The position numbers were made by a program, and so were the translations under genes. From NCBI GenBank assembly GCA_000092065.1, contig CP000595.1: a DNA stretch of 64,000 nucleotides. One strand, 5' to 3'. Below the pieces are notes generated by a model. That model did not search any database, had not been told where the DNA came from, and worked only from the letters and a program-made list of their open reading frames with translations. The DNA is from Ostreococcus lucimarinus. Lineage: Eukaryota. Shown in pieces: positions 25,891 through 58,742 of the stretch (position 1 is its first letter; every line of letters starts with the position of its first letter).

Positions 25891-28800
25891 TTATTCGCGC
25901 GCGGTCGAGGACGAAGCGCCGCCGAAGCCGAAAAATTTGCCCAGACGGGACGCCGAGGAGGCGGCTTCGGCGCGCTCGCGATCGGCTCGGCTGGGAGCGC
26001 GCGCGAACGCGCGAGGTCGGGCGACGCTTTCGTCGTCGACGACGGTCGTGGTGACCTTGCGGACTCGAGCGATGCGCTCGCGCTCGGGCTTTGGCGGCGG
26101 TGGCGAAGATGGGGTGAAAGCGCGTGGTTTGGCGATGGGCGCGTCGTCGTCGACGCGCCTCTTGGTCACCTTGCGAACGCGAGCGACGCGTTGGCGTTGC
26201 GCCTTCTCAATTTTGGGTTTGGTGAACGCCGGAGCGGACGGGTAGTCCTCATCGTCGATGTCATCGTCGAGTGCTTCGTCGGGGAAGCACTCGGCGCAGT
26301 AGACGTTGCCGTCTGGACCGGGCATGACGTCCTCCGGTTCCATCTCACGCGAGCAGTTCGGACACTCGAAGGGCGCCGGCGCCTTGGACGAAGCTTGTCT
26401 TGGCGCTTCGTCCATCTCAGGTTCTTCCTCGGGTACGCACCGCGGGCAGTAATCCTTCCCGCCTGGACCCGTGATGATATCGTTCAACGTACACGGTGCG
26501 TCGCAATTCGGACACGTGGGGATTGAGCGTTTTCGCTGTGGCGACCAACATTTCGGACAGAATTGCCCACCGTCGACCTTGATGACGTCTTCGGGCTCGC
26601 ACGGCGTCTCGCAGTTCGGGCACACGAACGGCTCCGGCGCGCAACGCGGGCAGTGTTTCTTGCCGTCGACGTCGCTGATCGCGACTTCTTCGGGCTCGCA
26701 CGGCGTCTCGCAGTTCGGGCACACGAACGGCTCCGGCGCGCAACGCGGGCAGTGTTTCTTGCCGTCGACGTCGCTGATCGCGACTTCTTCGGGCTCGCAC
26801 GGCGTCTCGCAGTTCGGGCACACGAACGGCTCCGGCGCGCAACGCGGGCAGTGTTTCTTGCCGTCGACGTCGCTGATCGCGACTTCTTCGGGCTCGCACG
26901 GCGTCTCGCAGTTCGGGCACACGAACGGCTCCGGCGCGCAACGCGGGCAGTGTTTCTTGCCGTCGACGTCGCTGATCGCGACTTCTTCGGGCTCGCACGG
27001 CGTCTCGCAGTTCGGGCACACGAACGGCTCCGGCGCGCAACGCGGGCAGTGTTTCTTGCCGTCGACGTCGCTGATCGCGACTTCTTCGGGCTCGCACGGC
27101 GTCTCGCAGTTCGGGCACACGAACGGCTCCGGCGCGCAACGCGGGCAGTGTTTCTTGCCGTCGACGTCGCTGATCGCGACTTCTTCGGGCTCGCACGGCG
27201 TCTCGCAGTTCGGGCACACGAACGGCTCCGGCGCGCAACGCGGGCAGTGTTTCTTGCCGTCGACGTCGCTGATCGCGACTTCTTCGGGCTCGCACGGCGT
27301 CTCGCAGTTCGGGCACACGAACGGCTCGTCTTCCGGTACATCCTCCCGCAAGCACTCGTTGCAATATTCCAAATCATCCGGACCGATGACGATTTTATTC
27401 GGCGGCTCTACGGTGATTCCGCAATTTGGACAGTTGACATCCTTTTTGCGAGGACAATTTGGCGCTTCATGATCCGTCATACCGCAGATGGAGCAGCGCG
27501 AATCCGGCATGACGAGGTTCTTGCGCGCCAACTCATCGCTCGGCTCTTCGAGCACCGCATGCACACTCGGCGACTCCGCGAGCGGTTTTCTCTCTTGTGC
27601 TTGTTTGAATTGTGCTTGAAGCGCTTCCGATGGCTTTACGGTTGGATTCGCGCGGAAGCAGAAATCGCCAAACGCGAGCATAAACTTCTTCGCGTCCAGC
27701 CGGCTCCCTTGGCAGCACAAGTACCCGTCAGGTTTTTCATCGATGGCGTGCACCCAGCCATGTCGAGCGCCGTGGTACACCCAATCAGGAGTCGACGTTG
27801 AGAAATCGCTGTAGGTTCGGAAGACCAATTCACCAAACTTGTTCAATGGACTCTCGGCACCGACGGCCCACATTGTTGCAGCCTTGAACTCCATCACTCC
27901 CATGCCATCCTTGTCGGTGAAAGCCTTGTACACAGTGCTCACAGCGCGGATGTCCTCGTCAGACGATTTGCCTTGCTTCTTCATAGCCGTCGCAAATCTC
28001 GCTTGTGCTTCGTATGCTTCGACGATATGATGCGCCTTAGGGCGAAGTATGCGTTCAATCAGCCAGCGCGTTGCGCGAGCGACGCCTCTATCTGTCAATG
28101 GCACGCGATGACCGTAGATGATCCAAGCCATGAAGACGAGGGAAGTGAGGAATTCATCCAGGTGCATTCCCCAAGCGTGCTTGATACGCAGCTCCAACCT
28201 CGGACCTTCGCTCGGACATAGCGATCCTTCAACTGAGCCAGTCTCTCGATCGAGTGTGAGACACTTGGCGAGAAGCTCGGGCGCCTTGACGGTATCGAAT
28301 ACCGATCGAACGACGGCTGAGAGCTGATTGTACTGCGAGTTCGGTAGTTTGTCCTCAATCTTGCAACTCGAGATGAGGTACATGAACTGACGGTAAGACA
28401 TGAGCAAGTGATCATCCGCACCGACGCGCGTTTCGTTGTCACTCGGACCAGACGGAATCGACGCGTATGTTTTGAACAAACCCTCCAAAAATGTCCAGTG
28501 ATTGCGAATCTCGCTCCAGACGTAATAGTTGCCATCTTCGGGCTCGAAAGAAGTCAGCACATGGTTCGGTTTGCTGATACCCTTGCGAGTAAGCGGAGCG
28601 GCATCTTGGATGAGCTCCTTACCATTGTTGCGGTAACGCAGAATCGTTCGTTCAAGAGGTTTTGAATTGCTGTCCGCAAGCATTCTGCGCAAGTCGAGCA
28701 CCGTCATTTCCGGATTTTCGTGAACAAGATTAGATTGGAGCACCGGTTGCGCCAACACTGGCCCTTCTTCAATATCCGGTCGAGCGTACATTCGTTCATC

Positions 28801-31800
28801 TTCATCGGGATCCCTTGCCTCTTCTGGGTCATCTTGAAGAATCAACCACGCTGTCGTCTTGGCCAAATTACCGCGGCGGTTCTCGAGCTGCACCTCCGCC
28901 TTCCATTGAAGATTCTCGAGCTTCACTGTGTTGTGAGTGTCGAGCAGCTTGCCTTTGTGCGAGATATCAAATTTACTTCCAGTGACAGCAGGAAGCTCGT
29001 CTTCACCTGCGAACTCGCCCCGATCGCGCATGTCTCGCAATTCTGTGGCGAGCTTGGTGTGAACGCTTGAGACTTCCTCCTTGAGACGAACGGGGACGTA
29101 CACGTTCCATCCTAAATCTCTCGATCGATCCGGGTCTTCTTCCTGAATGATGATGGTTTCTCTCGTACGGAAGTGTCGTTCTCGCTCTTGTTTAATTCGC
29201 GACACCTCTTCGTCGTCTTGCTGGATGACGACGTACAAGTTGCCGTGACGAGCGCAGCGCTCTCCGGGCTCGCATTCGCAGAGGCAACAGAAATCGTCGT
29301 AGACGTCGTCGAGGTCAAGGTGCCACGGCAACACGTCACCGTCTTCATCCTGCGCCTCTGCTTTCGCTTTTGCGAGACTTTCATCGTAAGCATCCCAATC
29401 AGGGTGAATATCACCAAAGTAACCCTGGAACCGAACAAAGTGCGTGCGTCCACTGACTTCGGATGTTTGGAAAAAGAGCTCCTCTTGGTCCAAGTCTGCC
29501 GCGTCGTTCACATCCGTTTGAAAGGCTCTTCGAACGTTGTCAGCTTGTTGAAGTACCTCATACTCAGCGAGTTGCTTCTCTTCGTCCTCCTTCTCTTTCT
29601 CTTGCGTAGCGTGCGACTTCGCACGGGCGAGAGTGGAGTCTCGAAGTAAAAAGCGTTCGACCGACGGGTTGTGAGCGCCTGAGACGCCGCGTAAATCTTT
29701 TTGAGCCTGTCTGTAAAACTTGCGATAGAAGTTGTATCTCTTTTGAATCATCTTATTCTCGATGAAGAGTTGCACTTGTCGATTCATGTCCCGATTGTCC
29801 ACCGCCGCGGCGCGAATCAGGCTTTGACGCACCGGGCGCGAGAGCATCTTGTAGAAAGATTTGGCTCTGTCGTCATGGGTACCCAGAATGGTCTCCACAG
29901 TCTTGTGTCGCCAGAGCGAGCGAATTCCTCGAGCGAATTCCATTCGCAGGTGCATGTCGAAATTACCACTGAAATACAATCCTTGATCACCTTCCGCGGA
30001 CTCAAGCTGAAGAATCGCGCCCGCACTGGGGTTGAGCAGCGAAAGTGTCGGTTTCCATTCGACCCACTTGCGTTCGCGTAGCCACTGCGATGAGCGGTGC
30101 TCACTCACGACAATACTGATGACACGAGCGATAAAATTCTTGTAGGCCCGTCGAAGGTGCCAGTCAGCTCTCTTGAACCATTCCGCGCTGCTATAGGCTT
30201 CGTAAAAAATCCCTGCGCAGAAAACAAAGACAGCCACCGCAATGGTTTGCCACACGGCATTTCTGGCGTTGTCCTTTGTCCTTTGGTTGATGATGTACGA
30301 CACCGGCGCTATTGAAATGACTGAAAGCATCAGTACGAGCACCATGGCGAGCAAATGTAAGCCAAGATACCGTTTTGCTTCGCTCGTTTTAAAAGGTCGC
30401 AAAATGACGGTCGCGAACGACACAGATATTACGAGTAGAGCGGTGAGCGCCTGCACGACACCGTTGCCATTTCTGAGCTCGTAGCCTAGAAGTTGAATCA
30501 AGCACAACGCCAATATTCGTGCCATCTCGTTCACACGATACCAAACGTAGTCATCTGTGAACTGGAACGTTGCAAATCCAATCAAATCTCGTTTCCACAG
30601 CTTTTCCCATCCTCCCATGGCGTACTTTATTACCCAATACATGATGGCAAAGAAACCGATCGGGTACAGAAGCAGGGCGATCAAGGCGAGCGGGAACAGC
30701 TGTTGCCATTTCGTGCTTCCAGTCGTCGATGAGAAATATCCGAATCGCAAGTTCGGCTGCGCACGAATGTACCCAAACTTGTCCGTCACTGAACGATGAA
30801 ATATGAAAAAGTCAAATGTCGCGATGATGACGGCGACATAAGTAATTTGAATGACGTTCAAAATACTTCGAAGCATTAAAACCCATCGCCTTTGACCGTT
30901 GCGAACCACCTCGACACTCGGCTGCGTTTTGATGTAAAATTTACCCCAAATGTAGGCGTACAGCTGTGCGATGCCGTACATCAGCGCAAGTCCAATCGCC
31001 GGCATGGCCATTAATGAGTTCCAGCGTGCCACAAAATCGTATTCAGTCAAACATTCGAGGCCGATGACTTCGGGGTTGAGCTGCAGTATGTAGCATAGCT
31101 GTAGCAGCAAAGTCAAGCCGGGATAATCGTTCCAGCCAAGATTGTATCTCCCAATAATCCCAACTTCTTGCAGAAACACAACGAGCGATAATATACGACA
31201 ATAGACGATGTATCGAAAGCTCTGCTCGTCGATGAGCCAGGGCATCAAAATCGCCGAAAGCATCACCAAGCCGACGCCCGCACCATACAGCGTGTGCCCC
31301 AAAGCAGATCCGCACTTCAAACACTGACCATTGAGACGGTAGTAGCCCGTAACACACGTCTCACACGCGTCGTGAACATATCCCTCTGCGCACTGCACGG
31401 CATCCGCACTCGATCCGCCCGCGGCGATGGCGTCCACTTGCGCCGAGCCAGCGATGCCTTTCACACCGGGACACGCCTTATGGGGGAAGCACTGTCGCAT
31501 GGAGATGGGTTGCTTGTACGAGCGCGTTTCAGGAGACACGACGTAGAAACCAGGCTGCGGATAAGGCACCGTGAGATTCGTCTCAGCACAATACGTCCAA
31601 CGTTCGGGCGCTCCGTAGGAGTCGCTGTACTCTGGGCAAGGAAAGCAATATCCCGGCACGCCGTACCAACCGATGTTGCAGAAACATTGGTCCCTTGACG
31701 TTGCGCCTTGAACAGAGGTACTCCCAGCGGGACATGAAATGCAAGTTTCAAGTCCCGGGGTGTCGGAATAATACCCATTGCTGCATCGGGTACAGAAGCC

Positions 31801-34800: not shown

Positions 34801-35631
34801 CGTTGCGCACCCATCCCCAGTCATCGCCCCCACGCACGTCGGCGTCGGCGCACTGTACGTCCAATTATACGCACACGTTCTACACGGTCCGTTATACACG
34901 CTTCCGCTCATGCACGTCGACGACGCCGCGCACCATCCGCAGCCGTCCGCTTTCGCGCAGTGCTCCGCGTTCCCAATCGCCGCGCACCTCGGATCGCACG
35001 GTATCTCAATCTCATTCGTCACCGCGTTCACCACTCGCGGCGCGTTCATCACCGGCGGCAAATGCGACACGCACAGCGCGGCGTCGAGCAAGGAGTAGCA
35101 CGTCGGGTTGTGTCCGTCCACGTCGCGCGAGTCGCACCACCCGCACCCGACCTCCTGCACGCACTCCCCGAACACCGCCCGTCGCTGGCACCGCAGCGGG
35201 CTCACGATGCTCTCATCGCTCGCGTTCCACGCCGTGAGCGCGTCGTCGTGCGCCGCCTCGGTCGTTCGCACGCCGAGCGCGCGTCGCGCGTCGCGCGCGC
35301 GCGCGCCCCGAGCGCCCGCGGCTTCGCTTCCCGGCGCGCTCGCGCTCGAGCGCGGGCTCGGCGCGAGCGCGAACAGCGCGAGGGCGACGCGAACGAGCGT
35401 TCGCAATCGCGCGTCGCGCGCGCGATCGCCGACGCGCATGGCGCCGCGTTCTGCGGTCGACGCATCCGCGGTGCCGTTCAAATCGAGGGTGTTACGCCCT
35501 ATAAATATACGTGATACCTTAAAAACACACACACTACTAGGGTTTAACGCAGACCAAACGTTTATTTCAAACGCGGTCGAACGCGGTCGGCCGCGCGCGC
35601 GCGCGTCGCTCGCACAACTCCGCGCGCGCAT
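25891..35631 (-). CDS. Giant multidomain membrane protein (3,246-aa ORF; probable start Met at 35439): signal peptide, PSI and EGF-like repeats, TM, Pro-rich segment, cadherin-like region (PVNDPP), ephrin-receptor-like Cys repeats, multi-pass TM module, large cytoplasmic region, C-terminal zinc-ribbon array
   Basis: 9.7-kb stop-free frame. PSI-type C..C......CGWC blocks ([14 protein letters not shown]; [16 protein letters not shown]). EGF blocks ([25 protein letters not shown]). Cys repeats CTICPLGQ...[11 protein letters not shown]...[11 protein letters not shown]...[10 protein letters not shown]. Hydrophobic module [17 protein letters not shown] ... [16 protein letters not shown] ... Repeated [33 protein letters not shown] zinc ribbons. 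Domain calls are by motif recall. Internal introns cannot be excluded. Confidence 0.75.
26584..27328. repeat. Perfect tandem repeat, 99-bp unit x ~7.5 copies, inside the coding region of the 3,246-aa gene (encodes 33-aa CPNC...CPRC zinc-ribbon units); flanked by degenerate copies (~26280-27480)
   Basis: Unit gacttcttcgggctcgcacggcgtctcgcagttcgggcacacgaacggctccggcgcgcaacgcgggcagtgtttcttgccgtcgacgtcgctgatcgc recurs with 100% identity starting at 26683, 26782, 26881, 26980, 27079 and 27178. A 5'-variant copy lies at 26584 and a partial copy at 27277-27328. The + ORFs 26471..27472 and 26563..27801 are repeat artefacts. Confidence 0.95.
30100..31300 (-). other. Multi-pass transmembrane module of the 3,246-aa protein, paralogous to the TM module of the 7,684-aa neighbour
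   Basis: [36 protein letters not shown] and [16 protein letters not shown] (minus strand) align with LAVADLQILGLDCVSTWDYFTRFATTMFAPFVWVFVLG and LYPVGLFLAAFGWLYVH of the + strand giant protein. Confidence 0.6.
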
Positions 35632-35729: not shown

Positions 35730-35760
<31 letters not shown>

Positions 35761-50700: not shown

Positions 50701-53700
50701 ATTCCGTCGCTGAAGATACGACGGTATACGCAGATATCTACTTGCAAGCGGCGGTGCGAGGCGATGACGTGCGCGTGACGCTGACGAGCTCTGATTTGAC
50801 GCAAATTTCATCTCCAGCGTCCGTCACTCTGACGTTCAACGAAACCAACTACAATTTGGCGCAACGTGTCCCAATCATTCCGGTGTATTCGTGCGTCGCC
50901 GCGCTTGATCGCTACGTTCCGATCGCAGTGAGCGTAGAATCCGCGACGACGTGCGGCGATCTCGTCGTACCAGAAATTCCTGTGTACGTGACAGATTTGC
51001 AAAAGGTTGGATTAGCGTTTACCAAGGCGCAAATCACCGGCCCCCCCGGGAGCAACTACGAGTTTGACATGTATTTAACGTCTCAACCGACATCAGACGT
51101 TCAAGTGTCCTTAGCAACGCTACCAGACGCTTTCGGAGCCGACTTGTACGGCAGCGCGTCGTTCAATTGCGGTGCCCAAGGTCCTGTTTGGACGTTTAGT
51201 GCTGATGAGTGCTCGGTGCCGGTGACTTGCATCGTCACGCTCGTCGGCGACGACACCAAGTGCGGAGATGTGACGTTGCAAGTTGGCGCCAAAGTCACTT
51301 CCTTGGATTCAATGTACAACGGCATCTCGAGTTCGCCGCCGAATATGACCATCCTCGAAACCGCCAACGCCGCGGGATGGTACATTCGAAATGCTGACAA
51401 CACAGAATTCATCGTGACGCCGCCAGATGCGCCAAACGGCACGTTGCCGCTCGAACCGTGGAAGGTGAATGAACAGATTGAAACGGGTATTTACACCATC
51501 ACACCGACTACGGCGTTGTGCAAAACAGTGACCCTTCGACCGTATATTCCAGACACAGATTACGCTCGATACGCCACCATCTCTCCGAGACAGGTGACAC
51601 TTGAGGCTGGATTCTTTGGTCCGACGAAGTTCAAAGTCATCTTCCCGCGTAACTACAACGTGCCCGTGACGAACGACATCGTTCAAATTTGGCACGATGT
51701 GGTGTACGGCACTGATGATCCGGATTACCTCGCATTGAGCCCGAATCTCGGTGGTAGTGCCCTGCCGGTCGAAATCGTCGAGTACGACGTCGCCGGTTTA
51801 TTGCTCGGCAACGGCGCGGAGAACACTGTTCTCATCGATGAGCCGTGCTCGACAGATGTGACGACACAGGTCTCATCTTTGGGATTCACGCTGTCAAGTG
51901 CACCCTCTGCAACTGTCGTCGTTTCGCTCAGCGAAATGAATTACAACGCGACTCAACTCGCGATTCTGAAGGCGAATAAACACCTTGTGTTGGGGACAAC
52001 GTCGCTGAGTTTTACGCCCAACAATTGGAACATTCCGCAGCCGGTGATGGTCTCCGCCATCAGCTATGACAACCTGACGGAAGCCCGCACGGCATATGTA
52101 TGTGGAGATATGACTTCAGATGATGATGTGTATCAAGCACTGAATCAAACGTGCTACCCCGTGCATATTTGTGATTGCTCCGGTTCATGCGGTCTCATCT
52201 CGTTTGATGATCACGCGAATTGTACTTTCGCCGCTGACCAATTAAACAACACGGAGATAACGTTCCCGCCTAGTATGAAGCAACTTTCATCTTGTTGGAA
52301 CATCAGTGCCACCTGTGGCGGTATTCAGGTCGCGAGTTTAAGCGCTGCCGGTCACGATCCGGTCATGACGAACTTTACGACGCTGCCAGATTCTGAAGCG
52401 TACTCGGTGAGTTTGGACAAAGTACAACGGTTATTTTACACCACGCAGTGGTCTGTCATCGATAAACTCGAGCTACCGCTATCGCTAATCGATGGTGGTA
52501 TGCAAGGCTTGACGGACGCTTCTGGTACCTATTGCCTCGGTATCTCATCATCGAGCTTTGTCGTCAACAACACAGCCAATGGTGGCTTGTTTGTTGAAAA
52601 GGCCGCCCCGATGAGCGCCTTTGCGAATTCTTTCGAAATCCTCCCGGCAGCGGCGAATACATTTGATTCGGACGTGTACATCCTTGAGGTGAGAGTTCTT
52701 GCCGGTGCATCGCCGTTGACTGATTCGTATTCGCTCAATTGCACGGATGGAGGCAACTTCTCTGCACCAGGCGGATGTATCATCGGTCCCAGTCTTCGAG
52801 GGTATTTCAATAACGCAACGCAAGTCATGACGTTCACGAACACGGCATATCTCCCGGAAGCAGATTTGGCCAACGCAGCTGGTAGAAAATTACTTGGAAA
52901 GTACCCATACCCATCACAACGCCGTCGCCTGTTGCAGGCACCGGCTGCACCGGCTCCTGCATCGACTTCTCAATTTGTGTGGGCTGTGAACAACATAACG
53001 TTTTCGGACATCAGTCTAGATCCCACCGGTGCGACGCGAATGATGAACACTCGAGTGGTGGATCAGTTCGGGGCCATCGTCGAAGGACCAATTCTAAATA
53101 TCGATACCGAAGGTGTGAACGATCCACCGATTATCGATATCGACTTGCCGCTCATTTACACAGAGAAAGAGAGTCTGACGCTCAACGCACCGCTTCAAGC
53201 CTATGACGTTGACAATTATAATTGGACGCAGTGTGTCGTGAACATCACGGATATCGCAAACAACTTCATGGCTGGAGATACATTCTCGTATAACAAAACG
53301 GCAATCGTCGAATACTATCAGTATTGGAACACATCTTTGCCAGCCGGTTTCGTGGACATTGACGCCACGTTCACCGACTCTCAGCGTACAGTGACTTTCG
53401 CCGGCCTGGCGCCGCCGGCGGCGTACTTGCGTGCGATGCGAAACCTGGTGCTGTTGAATGCTGGACCGGCAATGACAGCGGATGATCGATACATCATGTT
53501 CTGCTGTCAAGATCCGGAAGCGCTCAACAACAAAGGGTGCGGTTTGCAACGTGTTGTGTTCCAACCCGTCAACGACCCCCCGCTAGCTGAGAACAAGATT
53601 GTGTATCTTGCTGATCCTCGCGTCGGAGGGTTAACCGGTGAAACTGTTCCAGGATCAGATCCTGATGGCGATACGTTCACGTTCAATATTTCATGCTTAC

Positions 53701-56700
53701 CGAACAAGGGTGACTTGACGTTCAACACCGCCACCGGACAGTTTGATTATGCCCCGTATCCAAACATGATCGGCGACGACAGATTCGTGTACTTTACGTG
53801 GGATGGATACACCGGTCCAAACGAACGCCCGTTGCAGTCGAAATACGCCACTGTAGAGATTCGCATCGGCAACGGCGAGACGAATCCCGTGGCGCAAGAT
53901 ATTAACGTCGATGTGTGGGAGAACTCTGCTGAGTATTTCACGTTCAGCGCCACCGATGCAGATTCCACCAACACGGAGATGACGAACGATATTCTTCGAT
54001 ATCAAATCTTTGAAGAACCGGAGCTGAATGTTGCGGGTATTCAGCTTGACACTCAGCAAATGAGTGGAGGGAAGCGATATTCCGAAAATGCAACGTTCCA
54101 GTACACGGCGTTCTCGAGTTCTGATCTCGTCAGGCGCGTGTCAGAGCGTATGGCGAACTACGGCACCAACTTCGATTTCAACACTCTTGCGCGAGAAAAT
54201 CATCCGGGATTCAACGTGACGTCCTTCAAATATGTCGCTATCGATTTATCTGGTCGCGTTTCCAACGTCGCAAACGCCTGGGTCTGGGTTCGACTCACCT
54301 CAGAGACGAATTCTCGACCGAGTGCCAACGCGATGACGTTCACCACGCCTGAATCTGTCGGCGTGGCGAGCAATTTCGACACGGCGGATTCCGAATCCCC
54401 GTTGCAACTGAGACACACGCTCCCATCGCTCGCGTTACAGCCGACGCTCGGCGTCGCTGCGCAAGTCGGTATCGCTGCCTCACCCTACGGCAAGGCGTTC
54501 ACATATGAACCGTTTCCATTCTATTACGGCGTTGATGTGTTCGAATACCTCGTCACCGATCCACACGGGTCTACTTCTGATCTCACCACTATCACCGTCA
54601 CGGTCTCGCAAGTCGATCAGCCGCCACAAGGCGCATGCGGAGTGAACTCTACTCTTAAGTCCTCAGCCGATCCGACGTACGATCTCAAAGGACGAACGGC
54701 GGAACTGAGCGTGCTCATGGGTTATCAAATTATCCGCGCCAAGACGATGCGATATTTGATCAATCCCGAGCGAAGAGACTTGGAGTTTTACAATTACTTG
54801 CCCTTTATCAATGATTTGTCCAAGTTTGACAGCGTCATCGATCATCAAAATATATTTTTGTCATGTGGGTCGACTTCAGCTTTGACAACGGCTGCTATTT
54901 ATCACGACCAAGTGACCGCGGTGGCGCTCTTGGCGTACGATGTCGACCAAGCTGTGAACGACACAATACGGTACGTACTAAGTGAACTGCCGACTATAGC
55001 GTCGTCAGATGCAGCACGAGGTACAGCTGGGTACGCTGGTACTCTTTATCGATACGTCGCCCCGAATGGCACATATTACAACTCCACCGGGACGACAGTG
55101 TACTCTTACACATCAGATTCCGTCACCGGACTCACGCCGCTCGCCGCTGGTGATACCATCGGTGACGCCGCGAATGGGGCTGTAATGCTGCTTTTCAAGC
55201 CTCGAGAATACATCCACGGACCAATCACGTTCAAATGGCATGCGGTAGATACAACGACGTCGGCGCGAGGCGACGACGTCGCGATGACAATCAGTGCCAT
55301 GTGCAGAGGAGGTGAAAGCGTCAACGCTGACCATGGAGAAACGTGCGATTTGTGCCCAGTTGGTTCATTCAACTCGGCGAACATAGCCGATCAACAAAGC
55401 TGCGTGCAGTGCCCGGCGGGGAGTTACACCTCCGCCACGGGCTCGACTATTTGCGTGCCATGTCCCGCGGATACGTACGCGAGCACCGCCGGATCGCAAG
55501 TCTGTACACCATGCCCAGCGAACACGCGTTCACCATCAGGAAGCGACGACGTTTCAGATTGCCTGTGCGATATCGGTTTTGTCGTTTCGAACAGCCCGCA
55601 GTGCCATCCTTGCGCGCTCGATCGCGTCAAATGTACCGAACTCGGTCAGTACACACCTCTTCCGTACGATGGATTTTGGCAAGATAGCACAAATGGAAAA
55701 CGAAACCTCACCTGTATCCCGGGCTTGGCTTGTCAAGAGAAGTTTGATAAGGACGAAGTACGCACTGGTGCATGTGCGCAACCTCGGTTCTACGCCAATA
55801 ATGTGACAAATTCTCCCGCGTACGTCGGAGATGGTTGCTCAAAGTGTGCGAAAGATCACTATCGTTACGCGTCCTTCTGCGAAGCGTGTGACCCAGTGCA
55901 AGAAGTAAGAATCTTCTTCGTGATACTGGCGTACTGCGTTGCGCTTTACGCCATGTTCGAACTCGCAACACACCCAGCTATTCCTTCTTTGACGATTTTG
56001 CTGTCATTCACGCAAATCACTGCTCAAATGCAGTACTTTGAAATTCCGTGGCCGAAAGCGCTCGCGCGTTGGATGCAAGTCGCGTCGCTCGCCGTGGCAG
56101 ACTTACAAATCCTTGGTTTAGATTGCGTTTCGACCTGGGACTACTTCACGCGATTCGCGACGACCATGTTCGCACCTTTTGTTTGGGTGTTCGTCCTCGG
56201 CATCGCCATCATTTTACGCTGCTGGAGAGAGATTGCGAATCAAGCTTATGCGAACGTGCAGCGACGGCGACTGATTGAGCGTCGAAGACTGCTCCACGAA
56301 TTTGACGTCGACGCCAAAAAATGGACTGATCTCGCCATCGCTCGCGATGGGTTACCGTTTGATCGCCCCGATTTGAAGGGCAAAGGAGACGACTACAACG
56401 CACTTGAGCTGCATCTGTACGGCAATACTAAAAACGAAGGGTTGCGAAAAAGAGTCTTCAAAGAGGGCGTCGAAGAGTTACGCAAGGCGGATTTGCGGGC
56501 GAAAAGCTCGCAAGAACAGTCCAAGACTGAGCGAAAGCTGAGGCAAACCAAGGATGAAATAGAAGAGCTCGAAAAGCAAAAGGCTGTGAGCGCCAGAATC
56601 ATCCGGGATAACGTCAACCGCGCCATTCCTTCGCTCGTCATCGTCATGTGGTGGGGTTACATGCTCTTGAGCCGCACCGCGATCGAGTACTTTGAATGCA

Positions 56701-58742
56701 AAGATAACACTGAGTCGGTGTTATTGGTGGCGGATCCACAGATAAGATGCAATTTTGATAAGCACTTGCAGTGGAAGCCTGTTGCGTTGATTGGTTTCAT
56801 TCTCTATCCGGTTGGTTTGTTCCTTGCCGCATTTGGCTGGCTTTACGTCCATCGATCAAGCTCAAAGACGCGACCGCGCGTGCACGTCTTGGCCACGAGA
56901 GCGTCTCAGATTGAGAAGGCTCGCGCCGATCAGGTTGAACAATTCAATGCACGTTACGGTATGATGTACAACTGCCTTCGTCCACAATTTTATCTATGGA
57001 TATGTGTTGACCTAGGCAAAAAGTTTTCCATCGTTGGCGTCAAGGTTTTGTTCCCGAACGACATTTTGTTGCAATCATTCGTCTCGATGGTTGTCTTCGT
57101 AACTTTCGGGATCATGAGCACGAGGAATCCTTACGTGAGTGTGAACTTGAACGTAGCGGAAATGCTTGCGACATTCATGAACTCAATCACGCTCATCGCA
57201 GGGTTCTACTTCCAGCTTGGTATCATGGATGACGTGTCTACGCAGATCGCCACGTACGTTATCATCAGTGGTTTGGCTGGCACGACGATTGTCTTGACCG
57301 TCATCGTCGTCGTCGAGTTTTTCCCATGGATGAAGCGCTTGTTTTTCTTGCTCAAGTACAACACGCAAACCGATATTTACAAACCAGATAAAATCGGCAC
57401 GCACGAAAGTGGACCGCAAGGAACTTCGTGCTACATTTTTGCTTCAGATTCAGCGTTCAGATACTGGTGCTGGCGCACAGTTCGTCATCCAGTTTTTGAC
57501 CGTCTCATCACAGCCACCGTGATGATGAGCGTCGGTTGTCTCATTTCGGAGTCTGTCTTATACGACGAAACTTTCACGTCATCTGCGTACGTGCGCATCG
57601 TGTGGTTCAATTCGTTCATGAACGGTATCTTTGTTTTGGAAGCTGCCGTGAAAATCATTGCCATGGGTTTCATCCTTGGCGATGGCGCGTACCTGCGCGA
57701 TACTTTCAACTGCATCGACTTTTTAGTCATCATGTTGCAGTTCATTCTCTTCGCAGTGAACATCACGACGAATGTCACCGGTGCGAGAAGTGCGAGATTT
57801 GTCAAATTCGCGCGCGTGGCGAAGGTCAGAGTCATTCGCGTCTTCCGAAGATTCCTGCAGTTTAACGCCGTCCGCGGCGAGAAATTCCGTCTGATGCTAC
57901 TTGAGGCGAAGGCGGAGGACACGCCCGCGCTCAGCGAGAGCATCGAGCGACTTCGCGTGGTTTTTGAACCACGCAGTGCCGAGACGATGGAATACAACTT
58001 GCGGGTGCTACAGCCCGATGTTTTGCGCGTCGCCCAAGGACTGATTGACGAGCTTTACCAAGAAAAGTTTGATCCTGAATTGGTCGCCGTGTACGAATCT
58101 CAAACCGACGCCGTGCATCAGATGGTGCAGAAGCAATATCACGACATCGTGTACGAATGGCTCGCTTTCGTGGCAGAACCTGGGCAAAAGCGCGCATTTT
58201 TGGCCACGCTGAAGAACATCCGAGACGTCGCCCTGGATCTCGGTCCTGAGGGCATCGCCAAAGAAATGCTTCGTCAAAAGTACGACATCGCCGCCATTCT
58301 CAACACGGCGTTGTACAAGGTTCCAGCCGATGTCAAGACGGACACGCGAGCGTATAAACGAAAGATTGCGAAAGACGCCAAGTCATTCACCAGCACAAAG
58401 GCAACCATCAGCAAACAATTCAACGCCTTCCAGGCTTCCATGCAAAGTGACGACCGCGTCGAAGATGCACTCAACCAGTTGCCGCTGCACTCGGTGGAGG
58501 AAGACAGCGCTCTCGCCAAACGGCGCGCCGAGAACGCGAGCGTGCGCATTCGTAACCGCTCGCTCAATGCGAGTGCAAAAGAGAAAATCATCCAAGATGA
58601 TCTTCAACAGAAAACCTCAGGCGCGGGCGAGCTCCTCGCAGCGGCGTCTAGCGTCGTCGCTGAAGACGACGTCGCTCCCGCCGCGCCGGCACCGGTGAAA
58701 TCGTCCGGATTGTTGGCGCGTTTCCGAAAGAAAAAGACGTGA
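35778..58742 (+). CDS. Giant multidomain membrane protein (7,684-aa ORF; probable start Met 35778): signal peptide, PSI, EGF/tenascin-like repeats, Kringle, very long beta-rich extracellular region with cadherin-like PVNDPP repeats, ephrin-receptor-like Cys repeats, multi-pass TM module, coiled coil, C-terminal voltage-sensor domain (S1-S4) and ~290-aa tail
   Basis: 23-kb stop-free frame. Signal peptide MATATAPTPTRSARTPSAWTRTAMIAIALFAALGGATPG. PSI (GECLDTCGAALTCGECADQSGCGWCHTTGRC). EGF-like (CSSGYGGDGCEKMCPGG...CFCNPGYVGSRC; multiple). Kringle (GKQCQSW...ECRNPSSDAHPWCYV). PVNDPPLAEN / VNDPPIIDID. CDLCPVGSFNS...CVQCPAGSYTS...CVPCPADTYAS...CTPCPANTRS. VSD (see separate feature). Confidence 0.8.
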   Translation: MATATAPTPTRSARTPSAWTRTAMIAIALFAALGGATPGRAAFTADVCYGASWEPTATATKASIGKTVKPVTAVPKEHPLFVDAFAKACLDVGNAAGNTSAATTVRLPKRTNAGNETYWSNAAGACATSPTVSAGQLFYNRAEMGSTLSYADSNTGLEKDKTVRIVFVNDDGKGAHVVVLAGARAATGSSSPEVGLMMEGGSLKNSANVVIEEPRGLTNVVTSGSGCDPSVSSASDCYELDTDLGLGKFRWGSGSDQRGIVIGHVADVNSEFAMKFTLLERIDSVEIGSFDDATFAMSWETIPTASALRGFKIRSATCTNHCALHATCASCATDDACGYCSATKTCTKIDGSCSSGFDVIGECLDTCGAALTCGECADQSGCGWCHTTGRCTAAQLDGSAPQDGNCSAFSVGSSAQCATCPGAVTSTMLPAYVDVDRVSAFCNGRGTCDNITRTCTCSSGYGGDGCEKMCPGGASNPCSRNGLCDSASGSCFCNPGYVGSRCNAATIVGTCECGSAHTYLKSDGTQQRVCSGRLDSSGSCVCLEGWSGVNCTVACAGTLTVGTEVCGGHGTCNVGTGQCDCEPCYSRDATSGLCVQDTCSTCDSSNGVCSCVSGSMQCACRGAFDGYACDQCKCGDHGRCNALSGECECDAGYAGELCERLIEPQPTCANGGTWNAALKRCECAGGYTGTLCDAACTTNPCNDLCSGHGTVNVDGTSCTCFTGFSGSTCNTCATGYGPYPKCGATLANGECTDNIVAYTGTTNVTISGKQCQSWSSQSPFAHTYASSSGSTSNECRNPSSDAHPWCYVDHTAITGSYTRGEPRWEFCSVPTCKSAYVNPQKICGVFGGETVVTFDKDSTSGALNAVSQQALTTTNDAVDKTNCGAMNLTNNDITLHANAAAHGDFVARFAEDSGTGYARRIITHIGLKASVSPAHDSVEVHADGTVKVNSVTKTNDLPYSDGSTGVLCVSDWMPVSSGLASTELLQITISETTVANITKFTACTGCAAQLIVVISVPNSVTSTGICATAGSATSVNFDENAEGSAPWGVGAALNAACGTDTHDPGSVSTVQAKWCDQCQYLGEVYDSCVAQMANEGFNFARAAVIEGCRMAFVAIYGYDRTIPSYLTATASTGATLADTVYPYRSYTPSDVQFKSLSDNRLAFDVLDVTETLPEYIVGTTRTDGSRTRMTGLPREFTGETDTTQVFPFPRIEDSCRTASDIGSTSGYRVYTMNYASATDEALEITMCGSATGTNVGVYTKDFVDIPSADWTHNTTSANGNITFTFTPWIDGLATYEARFEYSLASTKKNVTFDVTRTSANVNIGSFEFYPPTASDSYGSVGFEFSVPSAEAAATVSFTMSPTGTGDSTAANSAFISLTAVFIHAKNYAQASLNYPPFGGFKQVSCANFQAASCGSLKFTATQKTYYIVVSGQKFVSGAYSMQIKKLSADLTTVYTVSSNAATSLVRPLTGLDGAADGTLTPYKVAKYGDNIRVVVRASHAIDRPRITLGNYAVPSSKIVSAGAGAEYSATVTVSASMATSGHITVKVEQASTLTSASYGFKTSTHPLGSDIALVVLDNTAPTVSHAWVVNPSYMLAPSSAPSSCTNLTTSTGKDVNVTAAKYAKAGDYIAVIFTPSENVATIGGTIGGQAATKWVRATAPRDVTLAIDAYKITMSAAYVDAAYALVNDITLSDGVLPFSITFTDAVGNVGTTINSAINSLTGVTASSPLADRLSAARLLYDKSPPRPDSWSLRYASSSEMTGNQGSKPVYYHGFDNVASSAKEYRIGDTLVLTGTWTEYVSRPYGAYMRSSASSGVHVPQSAITITEQGGKLTGKLECMAKEFRPRAQEAVSTAQGFGGTSYVTSTYHKSWKVEANTIDPCDIVGKGALAWSARADCQAEHYAGNSLWIPLWSAWCRHGWGTLGYAVLGGVDPAGNSATALRQVSKSPNNADATVVIASSAVAGDAIIRTPIPIAGKIVPSWMNSVPRGDWTADPKVIEVYIEPQNVRWNEYRRVVKVGDMLQIQFYTDQPVKGVRALIGDDKALPPATHSEVASAMNVERPCSSDPDMQTWLGARGLLALAAEEYNDGSQFSNDDDWFDWLVQTSYNYRQPVPNVPNYPNAAVTCTGFWVQRGLRPNGKRYSVRRLCPNRYYLRRSSFAAQAPLTCSDPNDRIYKATDAYNYWVINFRYVTSHQVVNGDGALQIKWQLTTMDDRVLPTGGGWQTSAAFFTSADTSADVNHLKPTSTDAVGAAFDPAISCGRNADTAFNQAGSAVWAVQDTLAPSCASFVTDGSCASTTVARVANSSGTTFPTVTNPATNVAEHVAVVGDYITLIITFDEHIAAGVYVTLNDGVLTARATKVDKYSATFTFEVTQTLAALNTFLEYKVYNLKDIQEANTATATFTTNVFNAEKIRLQSASELTAFSLTNGACSTTSNNVNNQYAKNGNTVNVSVTLPLPPSSANTVLTIHESKLAGVYVTPPTPTCVGTPNACTITMARTVDSLSADFVDGSVVSWSLVVIGTTKCAHHASSLCITRFKLTSCRPTFASEVVLDFTPPSLTSVRLSEPVTSASLVNGTGQVKVDVVSSEQLYTLTYTLDTRGPLCTYDFGMVSAQSMTLTTDGTLTGTHTKTITATYNSASLHCVLEVICITFVGEDMAGHKLTNPTTCRSFSPTDSEDYPGWFMLHNVGTGPSSVSLARPLGLHCMDSSVDTQACANSASVTSTTLEYGNYLALDVSSGYPIGITDISVDGHSVYAATGFGSSTFQNDNAWTIDCSDLVRDDLCVRFATSATCQAYLCPTCQYAGMCDFSCGYCDSRRAFSKTHKLTLKTTDFGLPATDFTNEVVTVSYRTNPAIAPAATMNSTDTLTYTAPTTSSCAGRCGGTAPSGCECNPTCKSRGTCCADAGHCCTVGLPSTGALNVDGGCLRPNAVTLSVTKESWGVDTKGVRKSNVNRYSTIYIKLTGNKPIDVRRVLIGGVLVPDSDVAIEYNSQTSARQSLNEALVAYGNGNDAQFTSKSAAFAGSLATLPSAAYSWDGNEFSIAFPDIPSTLVATIRVNGANLVPQPDGALTYEVVYRERSGAPYFTDNTELTLTGTGPTWLNPPSISSVSYVLLNSSSTCDLSTPGTPVTAAGNGLTKIEIGHQLRTVVTFSSPVVVRKWTVEGAETNCYGTCHLHGLCKLDPHILPPDEHDEAEYITTWTSCRTFDAKEMTTLENLECGVREFIRAVDRSGNLVMGERWNNLYCFTLPPAIPSQGLIKVRGLTSCYRSTTTKKFGPGCIATIHIEADGEIMEPTVKWWNTATNAYANFPSACVMTATDPTSPSSLVWTLTCAGTAAATFPPSNSYTLQLEVSDVRATDESTFTGTARDTDDGYLGSDKDPIIVDNLAPTPTATVPLSCALVIGSQSTITVTYAVEPSWRPTVSAFGAQVGGVIAQTGALSGFHTVWIAPITVPSDWLGGSPMPFVITNGEDEYGNIDTTSHGNYLSNDNVLTGDVNCSVNVDAPRVTSATCASPSPRVVKPGGSVTVDFSTNVAVTIPSGCVKISGVTVTPTDLGGSKKSWRATATIPSDPPACDGEVALSICAEITDTGNNTGVEVVTQFFGPESEACLIDGTAPVLQLIDFTSDNTYDSKLATVGDTVRLYFEASEMITAPTITLFATATPSATAVETSGPSRRRFPSTVLNAGGTQYATIWTAEYVVDGTTPVGALTWDATGFMDRATNDGTKSACADWNPPSCSIVHAAQTTAQRALEPSINFVGDVVQTFNNFLTTSPSGNVSTLFSCYANSSSTSLSALNLAILKTDLSRHDIVAGGIFQHHLMTAQDLWWQRGGACGTANGLMCRSTCGRCNDAAVVVHRTTTTLTVANVTAGGTAIPGDQCPGGVGTCMCNPTLGDQSEARYIVSTSARDLVSKPTIRFNDTSGTVYTVPEANIVAVSPVMWPTLPTVDCLSESTVRDGVCDPSATLNNRDGCWDGGDCCQDTCRQVFSDGAYCQAQDCRDHSISPVTGRPTSGFWSSYNAKALVARELSVEWKVTFPVDDTLPLIDGVLTGTACCMQDKSGLDVLHANKGTFVAGAPCLDAVLTRDTSCLLRAALTADNGEFVVKENQPVSLTLEFEGNPRGMNCTIGGESVTMTQTRAASSGVTALWSTTRTSVNAVDTAIATRIAASEEQKRRHELLPEVFELNLWANCSRGVTIPFECSISDCGGNLFEITDAVDPTSDVCFDYVRPDATSIGQTSSNTCSNAYAKVGDTLILNVTMDADVSNPTAYTLAGEACTLRTFGTNAFTCDVVVSSTTIEGPANFTFDGIKSSVPAYLDAVNTSYTELKTLSPDGVVTLGGDRVIIDRTAPTFDSLAMYSLEVANKTCQKRCTVRVAIDAAEELSSCTATIGGITANITGTGSERVAEAYIDENSGIAAGEITFSVICLDLACNSVTTSTLVGDTDAVIYSLDRDIPLEVLFYSDRPGHLEIGNENDCLMMEMRFLLAVELKAIVMGNITNNALSLWNITTTGGALVVPGTTHTYYLITHCITDAWGTEDWPVVPWSFTYDDGLQDVVWNTTFTSDVNFPRVVRLDLEDPVATYVYAFTTGANDPSAGLGDALYLDIIASEAVVAPTVTFGGVTLNATDVSQVGTSSEWRAGPYIVKNSTDDPNILKDINDCFLFSVTLKDLVDHTSILYSQQVNATGSLNCVTQRVDIDQDAPTIVWLQTEYVTATTVDFTFAVDELSNVSYVVLPRGAVEPTPLEVQAGTGAAGTGAVASGVKEYLGSSTPSPGAGAGGKGQDVLNITGLLAGTNYDVWFVPFDRFGNSQTEAQSRWIRTVGLDMLINSLATQEGGYTDVIQVKLTQVPTADVSVTISERSGIGNVVLVDQALSLTDYVSSVTLVFTPITWNVAQEVGVKAVDDIYVEDQHTEELKFDVRSLDVRYDALVDPNRTVVIADNDECGVIVYDPNNRPLERTLSCSANAVIALLNYSVAEDTTVYADIYLQAAVRGDDVRVTLTSSDLTQISSPASVTLTFNETNYNLAQRVPIIPVYSCVAALDRYVPIAVSVESATTCGDLVVPEIPVYVTDLQKVGLAFTKAQITGPPGSNYEFDMYLTSQPTSDVQVSLATLPDAFGADLYGSASFNCGAQGPVWTFSADECSVPVTCIVTLVGDDTKCGDVTLQVGAKVTSLDSMYNGISSSPPNMTILETANAAGWYIRNADNTEFIVTPPDAPNGTLPLEPWKVNEQIETGIYTITPTTALCKTVTLRPYIPDTDYARYATISPRQVTLEAGFFGPTKFKVIFPRNYNVPVTNDIVQIWHDVVYGTDDPDYLALSPNLGGSALPVEIVEYDVAGLLLGNGAENTVLIDEPCSTDVTTQVSSLGFTLSSAPSATVVVSLSEMNYNATQLAILKANKHLVLGTTSLSFTPNNWNIPQPVMVSAISYDNLTEARTAYVCGDMTSDDDVYQALNQTCYPVHICDCSGSCGLISFDDHANCTFAADQLNNTEITFPPSMKQLSSCWNISATCGGIQVASLSAAGHDPVMTNFTTLPDSEAYSVSLDKVQRLFYTTQWSVIDKLELPLSLIDGGMQGLTDASGTYCLGISSSSFVVNNTANGGLFVEKAAPMSAFANSFEILPAAANTFDSDVYILEVRVLAGASPLTDSYSLNCTDGGNFSAPGGCIIGPSLRGYFNNATQVMTFTNTAYLPEADLANAAGRKLLGKYPYPSQRRRLLQAPAAPAPASTSQFVWAVNNITFSDISLDPTGATRMMNTRVVDQFGAIVEGPILNIDTEGVNDPPIIDIDLPLIYTEKESLTLNAPLQAYDVDNYNWTQCVVNITDIANNFMAGDTFSYNKTAIVEYYQYWNTSLPAGFVDIDATFTDSQRTVTFAGLAPPAAYLRAMRNLVLLNAGPAMTADDRYIMFCCQDPEALNNKGCGLQRVVFQPVNDPPLAENKIVYLADPRVGGLTGETVPGSDPDGDTFTFNISCLPNKGDLTFNTATGQFDYAPYPNMIGDDRFVYFTWDGYTGPNERPLQSKYATVEIRIGNGETNPVAQDINVDVWENSAEYFTFSATDADSTNTEMTNDILRYQIFEEPELNVAGIQLDTQQMSGGKRYSENATFQYTAFSSSDLVRRVSERMANYGTNFDFNTLARENHPGFNVTSFKYVAIDLSGRVSNVANAWVWVRLTSETNSRPSANAMTFTTPESVGVASNFDTADSESPLQLRHTLPSLALQPTLGVAAQVGIAASPYGKAFTYEPFPFYYGVDVFEYLVTDPHGSTSDLTTITVTVSQVDQPPQGACGVNSTLKSSADPTYDLKGRTAELSVLMGYQIIRAKTMRYLINPERRDLEFYNYLPFINDLSKFDSVIDHQNIFLSCGSTSALTTAAIYHDQVTAVALLAYDVDQAVNDTIRYVLSELPTIASSDAARGTAGYAGTLYRYVAPNGTYYNSTGTTVYSYTSDSVTGLTPLAAGDTIGDAANGAVMLLFKPREYIHGPITFKWHAVDTTTSARGDDVAMTISAMCRGGESVNADHGETCDLCPVGSFNSANIADQQSCVQCPAGSYTSATGSTICVPCPADTYASTAGSQVCTPCPANTRSPSGSDDVSDCLCDIGFVVSNSPQCHPCALDRVKCTELGQYTPLPYDGFWQDSTNGKRNLTCIPGLACQEKFDKDEVRTGACAQPRFYANNVTNSPAYVGDGCSKCAKDHYRYASFCEACDPVQEVRIFFVILAYCVALYAMFELATHPAIPSLTILLSFTQITAQMQYFEIPWPKALARWMQVASLAVADLQILGLDCVSTWDYFTRFATTMFAPFVWVFVLGIAIILRCWREIANQAYANVQRRRLIERRRLLHEFDVDAKKWTDLAIARDGLPFDRPDLKGKGDDYNALELHLYGNTKNEGLRKRVFKEGVEELRKADLRAKSSQEQSKTERKLRQTKDEIEELEKQKAVSARIIRDNVNRAIPSLVIVMWWGYMLLSRTAIEYFECKDNTESVLLVADPQIRCNFDKHLQWKPVALIGFILYPVGLFLAAFGWLYVHRSSSKTRPRVHVLATRASQIEKARADQVEQFNARYGMMYNCLRPQFYLWICVDLGKKFSIVGVKVLFPNDILLQSFVSMVVFVTFGIMSTRNPYVSVNLNVAEMLATFMNSITLIAGFYFQLGIMDDVSTQIATYVIISGLAGTTIVLTVIVVVEFFPWMKRLFFLLKYNTQTDIYKPDKIGTHESGPQGTSCYIFASDSAFRYWCWRTVRHPVFDRLITATVMMSVGCLISESVLYDETFTSSAYVRIVWFNSFMNGIFVLEAAVKIIAMGFILGDGAYLRDTFNCIDFLVIMLQFILFAVNITTNVTGARSARFVKFARVAKVRVIRVFRRFLQFNAVRGEKFRLMLLEAKAEDTPALSESIERLRVVFEPRSAETMEYNLRVLQPDVLRVAQGLIDELYQEKFDPELVAVYESQTDAVHQMVQKQYHDIVYEWLAFVAEPGQKRAFLATLKNIRDVALDLGPEGIAKEMLRQKYDIAAILNTALYKVPADVKTDTRAYKRKIAKDAKSFTSTKATISKQFNAFQASMQSDDRVEDALNQLPLHSVEEDSALAKRRAENASVRIRNRSLNASAKEKIIQDDLQQKTSGAGELLAAASSVVAEDDVAPAAPAPVKSSGLLARFRKKKT
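38025..38275 (+). other. Kringle domain within the 7,684-aa protein
   Basis: GECTDNIVAYTGTTNVTISGKQCQSWSSQSPFAHTY...SNECRNPSSDAHPWCYVDH...EFCSVPTC fits the kringle pattern: C..YRG-like / CQ.W / (F/Y)CRNP / PWC(Y/F) / C...C. Confidence 0.65.
55900..57300 (+). other. Multi-pass TM module of the 7,684-aa protein (shared with the 3,246-aa paralogue) with an intervening charged coiled-coil loop
   Basis: Hydrophobic segments RIFFVILAYCVALYAMF, ASLAVADLQILGLDCVSTWDYF, MFAPFVWVFVLGIAIIL, IPSLVIVMWWGYMLL, VALIGFILYPVGLFLAAFGWLYV, etc. Loop EELRKADLRAKSSQEQSKTERKLRQTKDEIEELEKQKA. Confidence 0.6.
57456..57860 (+). other. Voltage-sensor domain (VIC-superfamily S1-S4) at the C-terminus of the 7,684-aa protein; no S5-pore-S6 follows
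   Basis: HPVFDRLITATVMMSVGCLISE (S1); IVWFNSFMNGIFVLEAAVKIIAMGFILGDGAYLRDTFNCIDFLVIMLQFILFAV (S2-S3); RSARFVKFARVAKVRVIRVFRRF (S4, R/K every third residue). Compare Nav/Cav repeat-I: [31 protein letters not shown]... and S4 ALRTFRVLRALKTIS. The sequence after S4 (FLQFNAVRGEKFRLMLLEAKAEDTPALSE...) is hydrophilic to the stop. Confidence 0.7.

Follow-up and report, generated by a model that had tools for sequence, protein, structure and literature searches.

Background

Two very long open reading frames (ORFs), referred to here as gene A and gene B, lie head to head on opposite strands of the Ostreococcus lucimarinus CCE9901 genome, within a window of 64,000 nucleotides of contig CP000595.1 (GenBank assembly GCA_000092065.1). 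The window is the whole stretch of DNA that was analyzed, and all coordinates below refer to it unless another sequence is named. An earlier note, made from the letters of this DNA alone, described the products as paralogous receptor-like proteins. The locus raises the question of which family such giant proteins belong to in a free-living green alga, and of whether two of them encoded side by side may work as one receptor. Judged by profile comparisons, A and B are very divergent members of a family of giant, type-I-like membrane proteins whose core is homologous to that of the cysteine repeat modular proteins (CRMPs), the link being made through intermediate sequences. CRMPs act in alveolates as triggers of rhoptry and mucocyst discharge (PMC9670195); described as common to ciliates and apicomplexans, they have been counted among the components of a secretion machinery specific to alveolates (PMC9670195, PMC9815656). 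The coding sequences and the membrane cores on which this assignment rests are as follows (aa, amino acids; TM, transmembrane).

25891..35439, minus strand: coding sequence of gene A (CRMP-like, zinc-ribbon tail), from Met65, 3,182 aa
35778..58742, plus strand: coding sequence of gene B (CRMP-like, voltage-sensor tail), from Met31, 7,654 aa
30187..31356, minus strand: 9-TM CRMP-type core of A, aa 1426-1815, 176 bits to an independent family profile
55833..57344, plus strand: 9-TM CRMP-type core of B, aa 6716-7219, 165 bits to the same profile

The membrane core and its family

When compared pairwise, the membrane modules of A and B were only weakly similar: BLASTP aligned them in two collinear segments (E ~1e-3), their identity over the profile columns is 13.5%, and direct hhalign gave a probability of 70%. 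When 1.84 billion representative proteins were searched exhaustively with the A module by phmmer, only 28 matched; these included proteins of the prasinophytes Nephroselmis pyriformis and Cymbomonas tetramitiformis and did not include B. In most of the matched proteins the membrane module likewise follows cadherin-like modules and ephrin-receptor-like repeats, in that order. It was this search that brought the family to light; word-indexed searches for homologs yielded little, with fragments only and none of the giant proteins.

The relationship of the two modules was examined with a family profile independent of both genes. It comprised 12 algal and protist cores, with A-type sequences and B left out, and it aligned end to end with A 1426-1812 and B 6719-7218. 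Because these alignments scored 176 and 165 bits and the best of 400 shuffles reached 5.3 bits, the homology of the two membrane modules, as claimed in the earlier note, is firm at the profile level, even though pairwise similarity alone is weak. By hhalign, the algal family matched A at 100% and B at 99.8%.

Sequences of the CRMP TM cores (TgCRMPA, TgCRMPB and PbCRMP1-4) were taken from the S2 Table of PMC9815656. The independent profile matched the CRMPA-clade cores PbCRMP1 (119 bits), TgCRMPA (115 bits) and PbCRMP2 (72 bits) over all or nearly all of their length, and TgCRMPB (38 bits) and PbCRMP4 (24.5 bits) over the second half of the core only; the algal family and the CRMPs were aligned by hhalign at 99.7% (E 4e-25). 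Identity of the A and B cores to the apicomplexan cores is 10-18%, and the two are about as distant from each other as from the apicomplexan CRMPs. Neither gene was assigned to the CRMPA or the CRMPB clade, a neighbor-joining tree being unreliable at 10-20% identity.

Several motifs recur in the multiple alignment of the cores (Q...WP...N.E...EC; F.C...DG..YL..P...C; YP.G; GF.Y..Y....YWE....RK; Q...PY), and both cysteines of the second are lost in A. Ahead of the first TM helix, the Pfam domain DUF7630 (PF24633) was matched in TgCRMPA (64.6 bits), PbCRMP1 (63.9 bits) and one family member, P0080 (30 bits). A and B gave no Pfam match to DUF7630, yet a CxxCxxxxYRxxxxCxxC segment aligns in the DUF7630 columns. 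Nine TM helices with the N-terminus outside and the C-terminus inside were assigned from hydropathy and from an AlphaFold2 (AF2) model of the B core, the sides being taken from the types of module on each. In that model the nine helices had a predicted local distance difference test (pLDDT) of 73-90; the B core also has a coiled cytosolic loop of ~150 aa inserted after TM3. The predicted topology appears coherent, in that disulfide-rich modules would lie outside and the loop, the zinc ribbons, the segment before S1 and both tails inside.

A further relationship was found to PF06011, the fungal 'TRP-like' Pkd2/Flc/TrpR family of putative Ca2+ channels. Fission-yeast Pkd2, whose membrane domain is modeled as TRP-like by Pfam, is Ca2+-permeable on membrane stretch in reconstitution (PMC9727806, PMC6727746). 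Three members of the algal family exceeded the PF06011 gathering cut-off over the second half of the core (P0089 at 45.8 bits, P0087 at 30.9 and P0083 at 30.2), and hhalign to this PF06011-positive group gave 98.5% for A-type sequences, 97.2% for B-type sequences and 98.0% for the apicomplexan CRMPs. The A and B cores are related to PF06011 at the superfamily level only, the link being transitive via these intermediates. No Pfam match to the ML-like (TRP_N) domain was found in A or B, and neither the fold search nor the sequence search of the PDB gave a channel relative of the core. Channels or TRP are not mentioned in the text of PMC9670195 or PMC9815656. A gene that bears the label 'TRP' (TGGT1_247000) is one of the candidate partners tagged in a Toxoplasma CRMPB background (PMC9815656 S2 Table). 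Elsewhere in the family, the cytosolic tail of P0077 (an MMETSP transcript) holds a canonical EF-hand pair at aa 767-828 (63 bits), which hints at a further link of the family to Ca2+ signaling.

The voltage sensor of gene B

Behind the core, B continues into two further segments.

57306..57863, plus strand: conserved cytosolic linker, aa 7207-7273, and S1-S4 voltage sensor, aa 7267-7392 (S4 at 57780-57863)
57864..58739, plus strand: cytosolic helical tail, aa 7393-7684, 64% identical to the ortholog, no Pfam family

The voltage-sensor domain that had been proposed for this tail was confirmed by a match to Pfam Ion_trans (47.2 bits) that covers profile positions 1-112 of 241, i.e. S1-S4 only, and by its kinship to Cav2 channels: the best PDB sequence matches of B 7267-7392 were sensors I and III of Cav2.3, Cav2.2 and Cav2.1 (E 5e-34 to 7e-29), including the segment before S1. 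The S4 helix reads R-SA-R-FV-K-FA-R-VA-K, its five charges (R, R, K, R, K) being spaced three residues apart. S2 reads IFVLEAAVK, which supplies Phe-x-x-Glu and Lys, and S3 reads FNCIDF, which supplies Asp. All of these residues are kept in the ortholog P0113 from another Ostreococcus species.

No S5-P-S6 pore was found in B, as the Pfam match ends at profile position 112 and nothing hydrophobic follows S4; the sensor is for this reason one without a pore. Proton conduction of the Hv1 kind was set aside, since S1 lacks an Asp in the middle of the helix and the domain resembles Cav sensors. The fusion is topologically coherent, because nine helices that start from an outer N-terminus leave the end of the core in the cytosol, where a sensor must begin. 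In a comparison of four sequences, ~76% of the linker of 66 residues between the last core helix and S1 proved invariant. The sensor is less conserved than this linker, which suggests that core and sensor are functionally coupled.

Reading frames and gene models

The coordinates and lengths that had been given for the two giant head-to-head ORFs were borne out, as was their spacing, and a single-exon structure is likely for both.

25891-35631, minus strand: maximal ORF of gene A, 3,246 codons
35688-58742, plus strand: maximal ORF of gene B, 7,684 codons
35440..35777, no strand: divergent promoter and 5' untranslated region common to both genes, 338 bp, GC-rich with degenerate repeats

The maximal ORFs start 56 bp apart, and the likely start codons (Met65 of A at 35439 and Met31 of B at 35778), each of which is followed by a plausible signal peptide, are separated by 338 bp, against the ~340 bp noted before. 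Runs of 3,246 and 7,684 unbroken codons in DNA of 50-65% GC cannot be due to chance, and both ORFs are on this ground taken as real. By exact-sequence look-up, gene A from Met65 is exactly XP_001421774.1/ABP00068.1, a 'predicted protein' of 3,182 aa, so that the NCBI model of gene A is the uninterrupted ORF. Gene B was not found as an annotated protein by exact look-up with three candidate start codons. Its ortholog in a 65%-identical species (L014) is an open ORF over all 11.8 kb compared (at least 3,927 codons), and eight environmental contigs ~99% identical to B have no indel or stop in 3,918 codons; with the NCBI model of A, these observations point to single-exon ORFs.

Degenerate GC-rich repeats, including (CGA)n, occupy 35645-35810, which covers part of the spacer and the 5' end of the maximal ORF of B; the (CGA)n would encode a run of ten Arg upstream of Met31, the probable start of B. 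The GC fraction is 0.50-0.57 inside the giant genes (28000-34000 and 38000-58000) as against 0.60-0.68 in the flanking genes, and along gene B it falls steadily from the 5' to the 3' end.

Architecture of the two proteins

The features of gene A outside the core are listed from its N-terminus.

35335-35439, minus strand: signal peptide
34492..35193, minus strand: ectodomain part 1, two PSI-like and EGF modules, aa 147-380 (EGF_Teneurin; PSI 19.8 bits)
33811..34311, minus strand: TM-loop-TM insertion, aa 441-607 (hydropathy)
33667-33777, minus strand: Pro-rich stalk before ectodomain part 2
31312..33135, minus strand: ectodomain part 2, cadherin-like/Big_9 modules at aa ~833-1078 and ephrin-receptor-like Cys repeats at aa 1221-1440 (Pfam)
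26287..30186, minus strand: cytosolic tail, aa 1816-3115 (translation)
26287-27495, minus strand: CCHC knuckle and 12 CPxC...CPxC zinc ribbons at the end of the tail
26584-27327, minus strand: zinc-ribbon tandem array (Tandem Repeats Finder: 99 bp x 7.5 copies, 99% identity)

Those of gene B are listed in the same way.

36729..38273, plus strand: N-terminal modules, two PSI at aa 348-452, EGF array at aa 472-772 and Kringle at aa 781-862
38274..53111, plus strand: 'dark' ectodomain of ~4,900 aa, no Pfam family
44406-44510, plus strand: Somatomedin-B-like Cys motif in the dark ectodomain, 18.5 bits, below the cut-off
47655-47729, plus strand: LNR/Notch-like Cys motif in the dark ectodomain
53112..55889, plus strand: cadherin-like/Big_9 modules at aa ~5809-6315 and ephrin-receptor-like Cys repeats at aa 6538-6734 (Pfam)

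EGF_Teneurin, Big_9/Cadherin_4 and Ephrin_rec_like are the Pfam families common to both proteins. A common opening of signal peptide, PSI and EGF modules had been described; signal peptides and EGF modules were found in both genes, and PSI exceeded the Pfam cut-off in B only (27.4 bits, where EGF_Teneurin/EGF_TEN also matched), the match in A (19.8 bits) lying just under the cut-off of 23.1. The two PSI/EGF regions resemble each other (BLASTP E 3e-14), and so do A 888-1557 and B 6247-6842 (E 9e-17). The cadherin-like modules and the ephrin-receptor-like Cys repeats ahead of the TM module, which had been read from motifs, were recovered by Pfam in both proteins (in A, Big_9 at 44 bits, Cadherin_4 at 35.6 and Ephrin_rec_like at 37.4; in B, Ephrin_rec_like at 35.9-45 bits, ending at the first TM helix).

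Only B has a Kringle domain (38028-38273), which matched PF00051 at 56.2 bits against a cut-off of 34.3. This domain was missed when a whole piece of 3,900 aa was scanned at E up to 0.01 and appeared only in the segment scanned alone; whole-protein scans of giant proteins can therefore hide clear domains. In pieces of 1,000 aa the dark ectodomain gave no Pfam match, and BLAST found little internal repetition in it. Many 'DxTAP' motifs occur there and look like boundaries of Ig-like modules.

The insertion of A consists of a TM helix (aa 441-463), a loop of ~95 aa (aa 469-563) and a second TM helix (aa 588-607), as read from hydropathy. It interrupts the ectodomain and would put a small cytosolic domain between two extracellular parts. 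The loop ends in ...HVHLKLRG and is ubiquitin-like in sequence (UCH_UBL1 at E 0.0035, AF2 pLDDT 49.5), values that are only suggestive of a ubiquitin-like fold. The whole insertion is collinear and conserved in a 37%-identical ortholog.

At the other end of A, the zinc-ribbon array that had been reported is real, and the cytosolic tail outside the ribbons matched no Pfam family. Among near-identical environmental versions of gene A the number of ribbon copies differs, with 0, 1, 7 or 8 core units in the cluster and protein lengths of 3,015, 3,048 and 3,182 aa; this range of copies is uncertain, as short-read assemblies may have collapsed the array.

Conservation and pairing

B was compared with its ortholog in L014 over seven regions (aa 3770-7684). 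In all seven, nonsynonymous divergence (dN) was 0.19-0.34 and synonymous divergence (dS) was saturated at 1.5-2.4, and the part of the dark ectodomain that could be compared (aa 3770-5980) is likewise under purifying selection. In the metagenome scan for relatives of B, all matches were at least 64% identical. The environmental contigs differ from B by 4-12 synonymous and 10-18 nonsynonymous changes each.

The divergent arrangement of A and B recurs in three relatives, each of which has RB downstream of A.

L002: divergent A/B pair; A core fragment 97% identical
L001: divergent A/B pair; A core fragment 75% identical
L003: divergent A/B pair in a high-GC relative; A ortholog 37% identical over 1,871 aligned positions

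In L003 the A ortholog has the TM-loop-TM insertion, and its divergent neighbor has EGF and Kringle modules. The B ortholog in this sequence (L003 1-27071, 67-75% GC) is split into several called genes, probably through long-read frameshift errors. A GC content as high as this is not known from the published Mamiellales genomes.

The earlier note had proposed, as the simplest history, an inverted duplication followed by a swap of C-terminal modules. As a recent event this was not upheld, and the paralogy of A and B is instead ancient, because the cores share 13.5% identity, the A core finds other algae but not B, and the pairing predates the divergence to 37% identity. An old tandem or inverted local duplication may possibly lie behind the pair.

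The flanking genes are ordinary (OGG1, SNAPC3, Vps41, acetolactate synthase, RB, acyl-CoA-synthetase-like and glucan-water-dikinase-like). Adjoining RB is a separate ORF of 698 aa (16245-18338, minus strand) in which a Furin-like cysteine-rich repeat was matched (PF15913, 34.5 bits), so that a further Cys-repeat protein is encoded in the vicinity of the two genes.

Proposed working and alternatives

On balance we favor the reading that A and B form a co-expressed, heteromeric contact sensor with CRMP-type cores, which is possibly a channel and would be modulated by voltage. The shared promoter region would co-express the two genes, and their products would join via the cores into a sensor in the plasma membrane, in the manner of Toxoplasma CRMPA and CRMPB. 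With their very large adhesive ectodomains, the two proteins may sense that a virus, a particle, a mating partner or some other cell touches the surface or puts it under tension. The core would then turn contact or tension into a cytosolic signal, most plausibly Ca2+ entry via a Pkd2/Flc-like path and otherwise a conformational change. Through the conserved linker, the voltage sensor of B would make this output depend on the membrane potential, and the zinc-ribbon tail of A would recruit partners in the cytosol. Downstream, the signal may lead to regulated exocytosis, the outcome known from alveolates, or else to a response in mating or defense.

Several observations weigh against a heteromeric, voltage-modulated sensor of this kind. 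What A and B do, from expression and localization to complex formation and ion conduction, is inferred from sequence. A profile of the apicomplexan CRMPs only fails to match A or B, although many algal members score 50-65 bits against it, so that the CRMP link of the two is transitive, via intermediate sequences. A direct PF06011 match was not obtained for the cores of A and B even at E up to 10. Between species, no region of B is less conserved than the voltage sensor (57% identity), and polymorphism of B in the population comprises about equal nonsynonymous and synonymous changes per site (in small counts). Head-to-head neighbors with short spacers should be common in the compact Ostreococcus genome; the pairing in one genome for that reason proves little, and only its conservation carries weight. 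To our knowledge no extrusomes have been described in Ostreococcus, so the function of the family in alveolates is not simply transferable.

A and B could instead be independent giant adhesion or surface proteins that form no complex, with their adjacency a leftover of an ancient local duplication that was kept by chance in a compact genome with conserved gene order. This is possible and in our view rather unlikely. Cores of such low identity, unrelated tails and ordinary housekeeping neighbors agree with independence, and conserved adjacency may be passive, since synteny in general is kept in the relatives (RB downstream of A). Passive retention has to extend, however, to a relative whose A ortholog is only 37% identical and which still keeps the divergent pair, and the characterized family members are an obligate heterodimer of two divergent paralogs (PMC9815656). 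A more radical objection, that the giant ORFs are artefacts in which several genes, or exons and introns, are read through, is hardly credible. It could appeal to the exact look-up of B from three start codons, which found no annotated protein, but a stop-free stretch of 23 kb cannot be chance, the NCBI model of A equals its ORF, the orthologous ORF is open in another species with purifying selection in all seven regions compared over the C-terminal half of B, the eight environmental contigs are free of indels over the codons compared, and the alternation of extracellular and cytosolic modules fits the TM helices.

The remaining alternatives concern what the core and the sensor do. A core that is GPCR-like (G-protein-coupled-receptor-like), or another non-conducting transducer, would leave the sensor to modulate a conformational signal and not an ion flux; we think this unlikely, and count towards it a GPCR-like PANTHER call for TgCRMPA and PfCRMP1 (PMC9670195), the lack of a direct PF06011 match in A and B, and the PDB fold and sequence searches that gave no channel relative. 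Just as doubtful is a full channel, in which B, alone or with A, would be a contact- or tension-sensing cation channel whose CRMP-type, Pkd2/Flc-like core of nine helices conducts and whose C-terminal, Cav-derived sensor gates. It seems improbable to us that the voltage-sensor domain of B is insensitive to voltage, being left over from a piece of a Cav channel that was once captured. Its low conservation, its poor AF2 model (pLDDT ~40, from an alignment with three sequences only) and the lack of a pore or known effector behind it would suit a vestige, whereas the S4 charges, the Phe-x-x-Glu and Lys of S2 and the Asp of S3 are kept in the ortholog while surrounding residues vary, dN there falls far short of dS, which is saturated, and the linker from core to sensor is largely invariant.

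These findings would bear on several fields. CRMPs are essential invasion factors of Toxoplasma and Plasmodium; with relatives in green algae (Ostreococcus, Nephroselmis, Cymbomonas) the family would gain in age and in breadth, and Ostreococcus would offer a free-living system with a compact genome in which to study it. An obligate receptor of two paralogs may, as the conserved divergent pairing suggests, leave its signature in the arrangement of the genome. From the profile link between the CRMP core and PF06011 comes the testable idea that CRMPs may conduct Ca2+, and a pore-less Cav-type sensor behind a CRMP-type core would interest channel biophysicists. Should the channel reading be true, B would represent a new class of voltage-sensor-coupled effector and, by homology, the CRMPs that trigger rhoptry and mucocyst discharge would be ion channels of ancient, pre-alveolate origin.

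Comparison with known systems

A likeness to polycystin-1/REJ proteins or adhesion GPCRs had been suggested for the two genes. The general plan of a huge modular ectodomain, a multi-pass region and a signaling tail is indeed common to all, assembled in A and B from another domain set; the kinship itself did not stand, as the core, with its nine helices, is of the CRMP family, and no Pfam match to REJ, GAIN/GPS, PLAT, PKD-channel or 7TM domains was found in A or B.

Fungal Pkd2/Flc proteins (S. pombe Pkd2, S. cerevisiae Flc1-3 and A. nidulans TrpR) resemble A and B in their order of signal peptide, ectodomain, multi-pass core and a coiled-coil tail in the cytosol, and the C-terminal half of the core is related at the profile level (hhalign 97-98.5% to PF06011-positive intermediates). 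S. pombe Pkd2 is a stretch-activated, Ca2+-permeable protein of the plasma membrane (PMC9727806). The fungal proteins differ in being 700-800 aa long and in having neither a Cys-repeat ectodomain nor a voltage sensor, and A and B lack the ML-like domain.

With Ci-VSP/TPTE, Hv1, TMEM266 and SLC9C1, B shares S1-S4, regularly spaced S4 charges and an intact charge-transfer center without S5-P-S6. SLC9C1 is also alike in that its sensor lies C-terminal to another multi-pass membrane module, and it provides the precedent for a voltage sensor that drives a non-channel module (PMC6052114; reviewed in PMC13095418). The partner of the sensor in B differs from all of these, being a CRMP-type core with an adhesive ectodomain of 6,600 aa, and the sensor is nearest to Cav2 I/III, not to VSP or Hv1. 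The voltage-sensor proteins of the 2024 review are channels, VSP, Hv1, SLC9C1 and TMEM266, and a pore-less Cav-type sensor behind a CRMP-type core is not among its classes (PMC13095418).

The closest likeness is to the alveolate CRMPs (Plasmodium CRMP1-4, Toxoplasma CRMPA/CRMPB and Tetrahymena CRMP1/2), which are also very large, carry a signal peptide and EGF/ephrin-receptor-like Cys repeats, and end in a homologous nine-helix core and a cytosolic C-terminus (PMC9670195, PMC9815656). CRMPA/CRMP1 and gene B have a Kringle domain in common. In both systems two divergent paralogs occur together; the Toxoplasma pair heterodimerizes via the TM cores (PMC9815656). CRMPs and Ostreococcus, Micromonas or green algae were not mentioned jointly among the top-ranked literature results. 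The ectodomains of A and B differ in their far greater size, in their cadherin-like/Big_9 modules and, in B, in ~4,900 aa that match no known family, and no MAR domain was seen in either; B adds the voltage sensor, and A adds the zinc-ribbon array and the TM-loop-TM insertion. What appears to be new here is the occurrence in a green alga of putative receptors of the CRMP family, one of them fused to a voltage sensor and the other ending in zinc ribbons.

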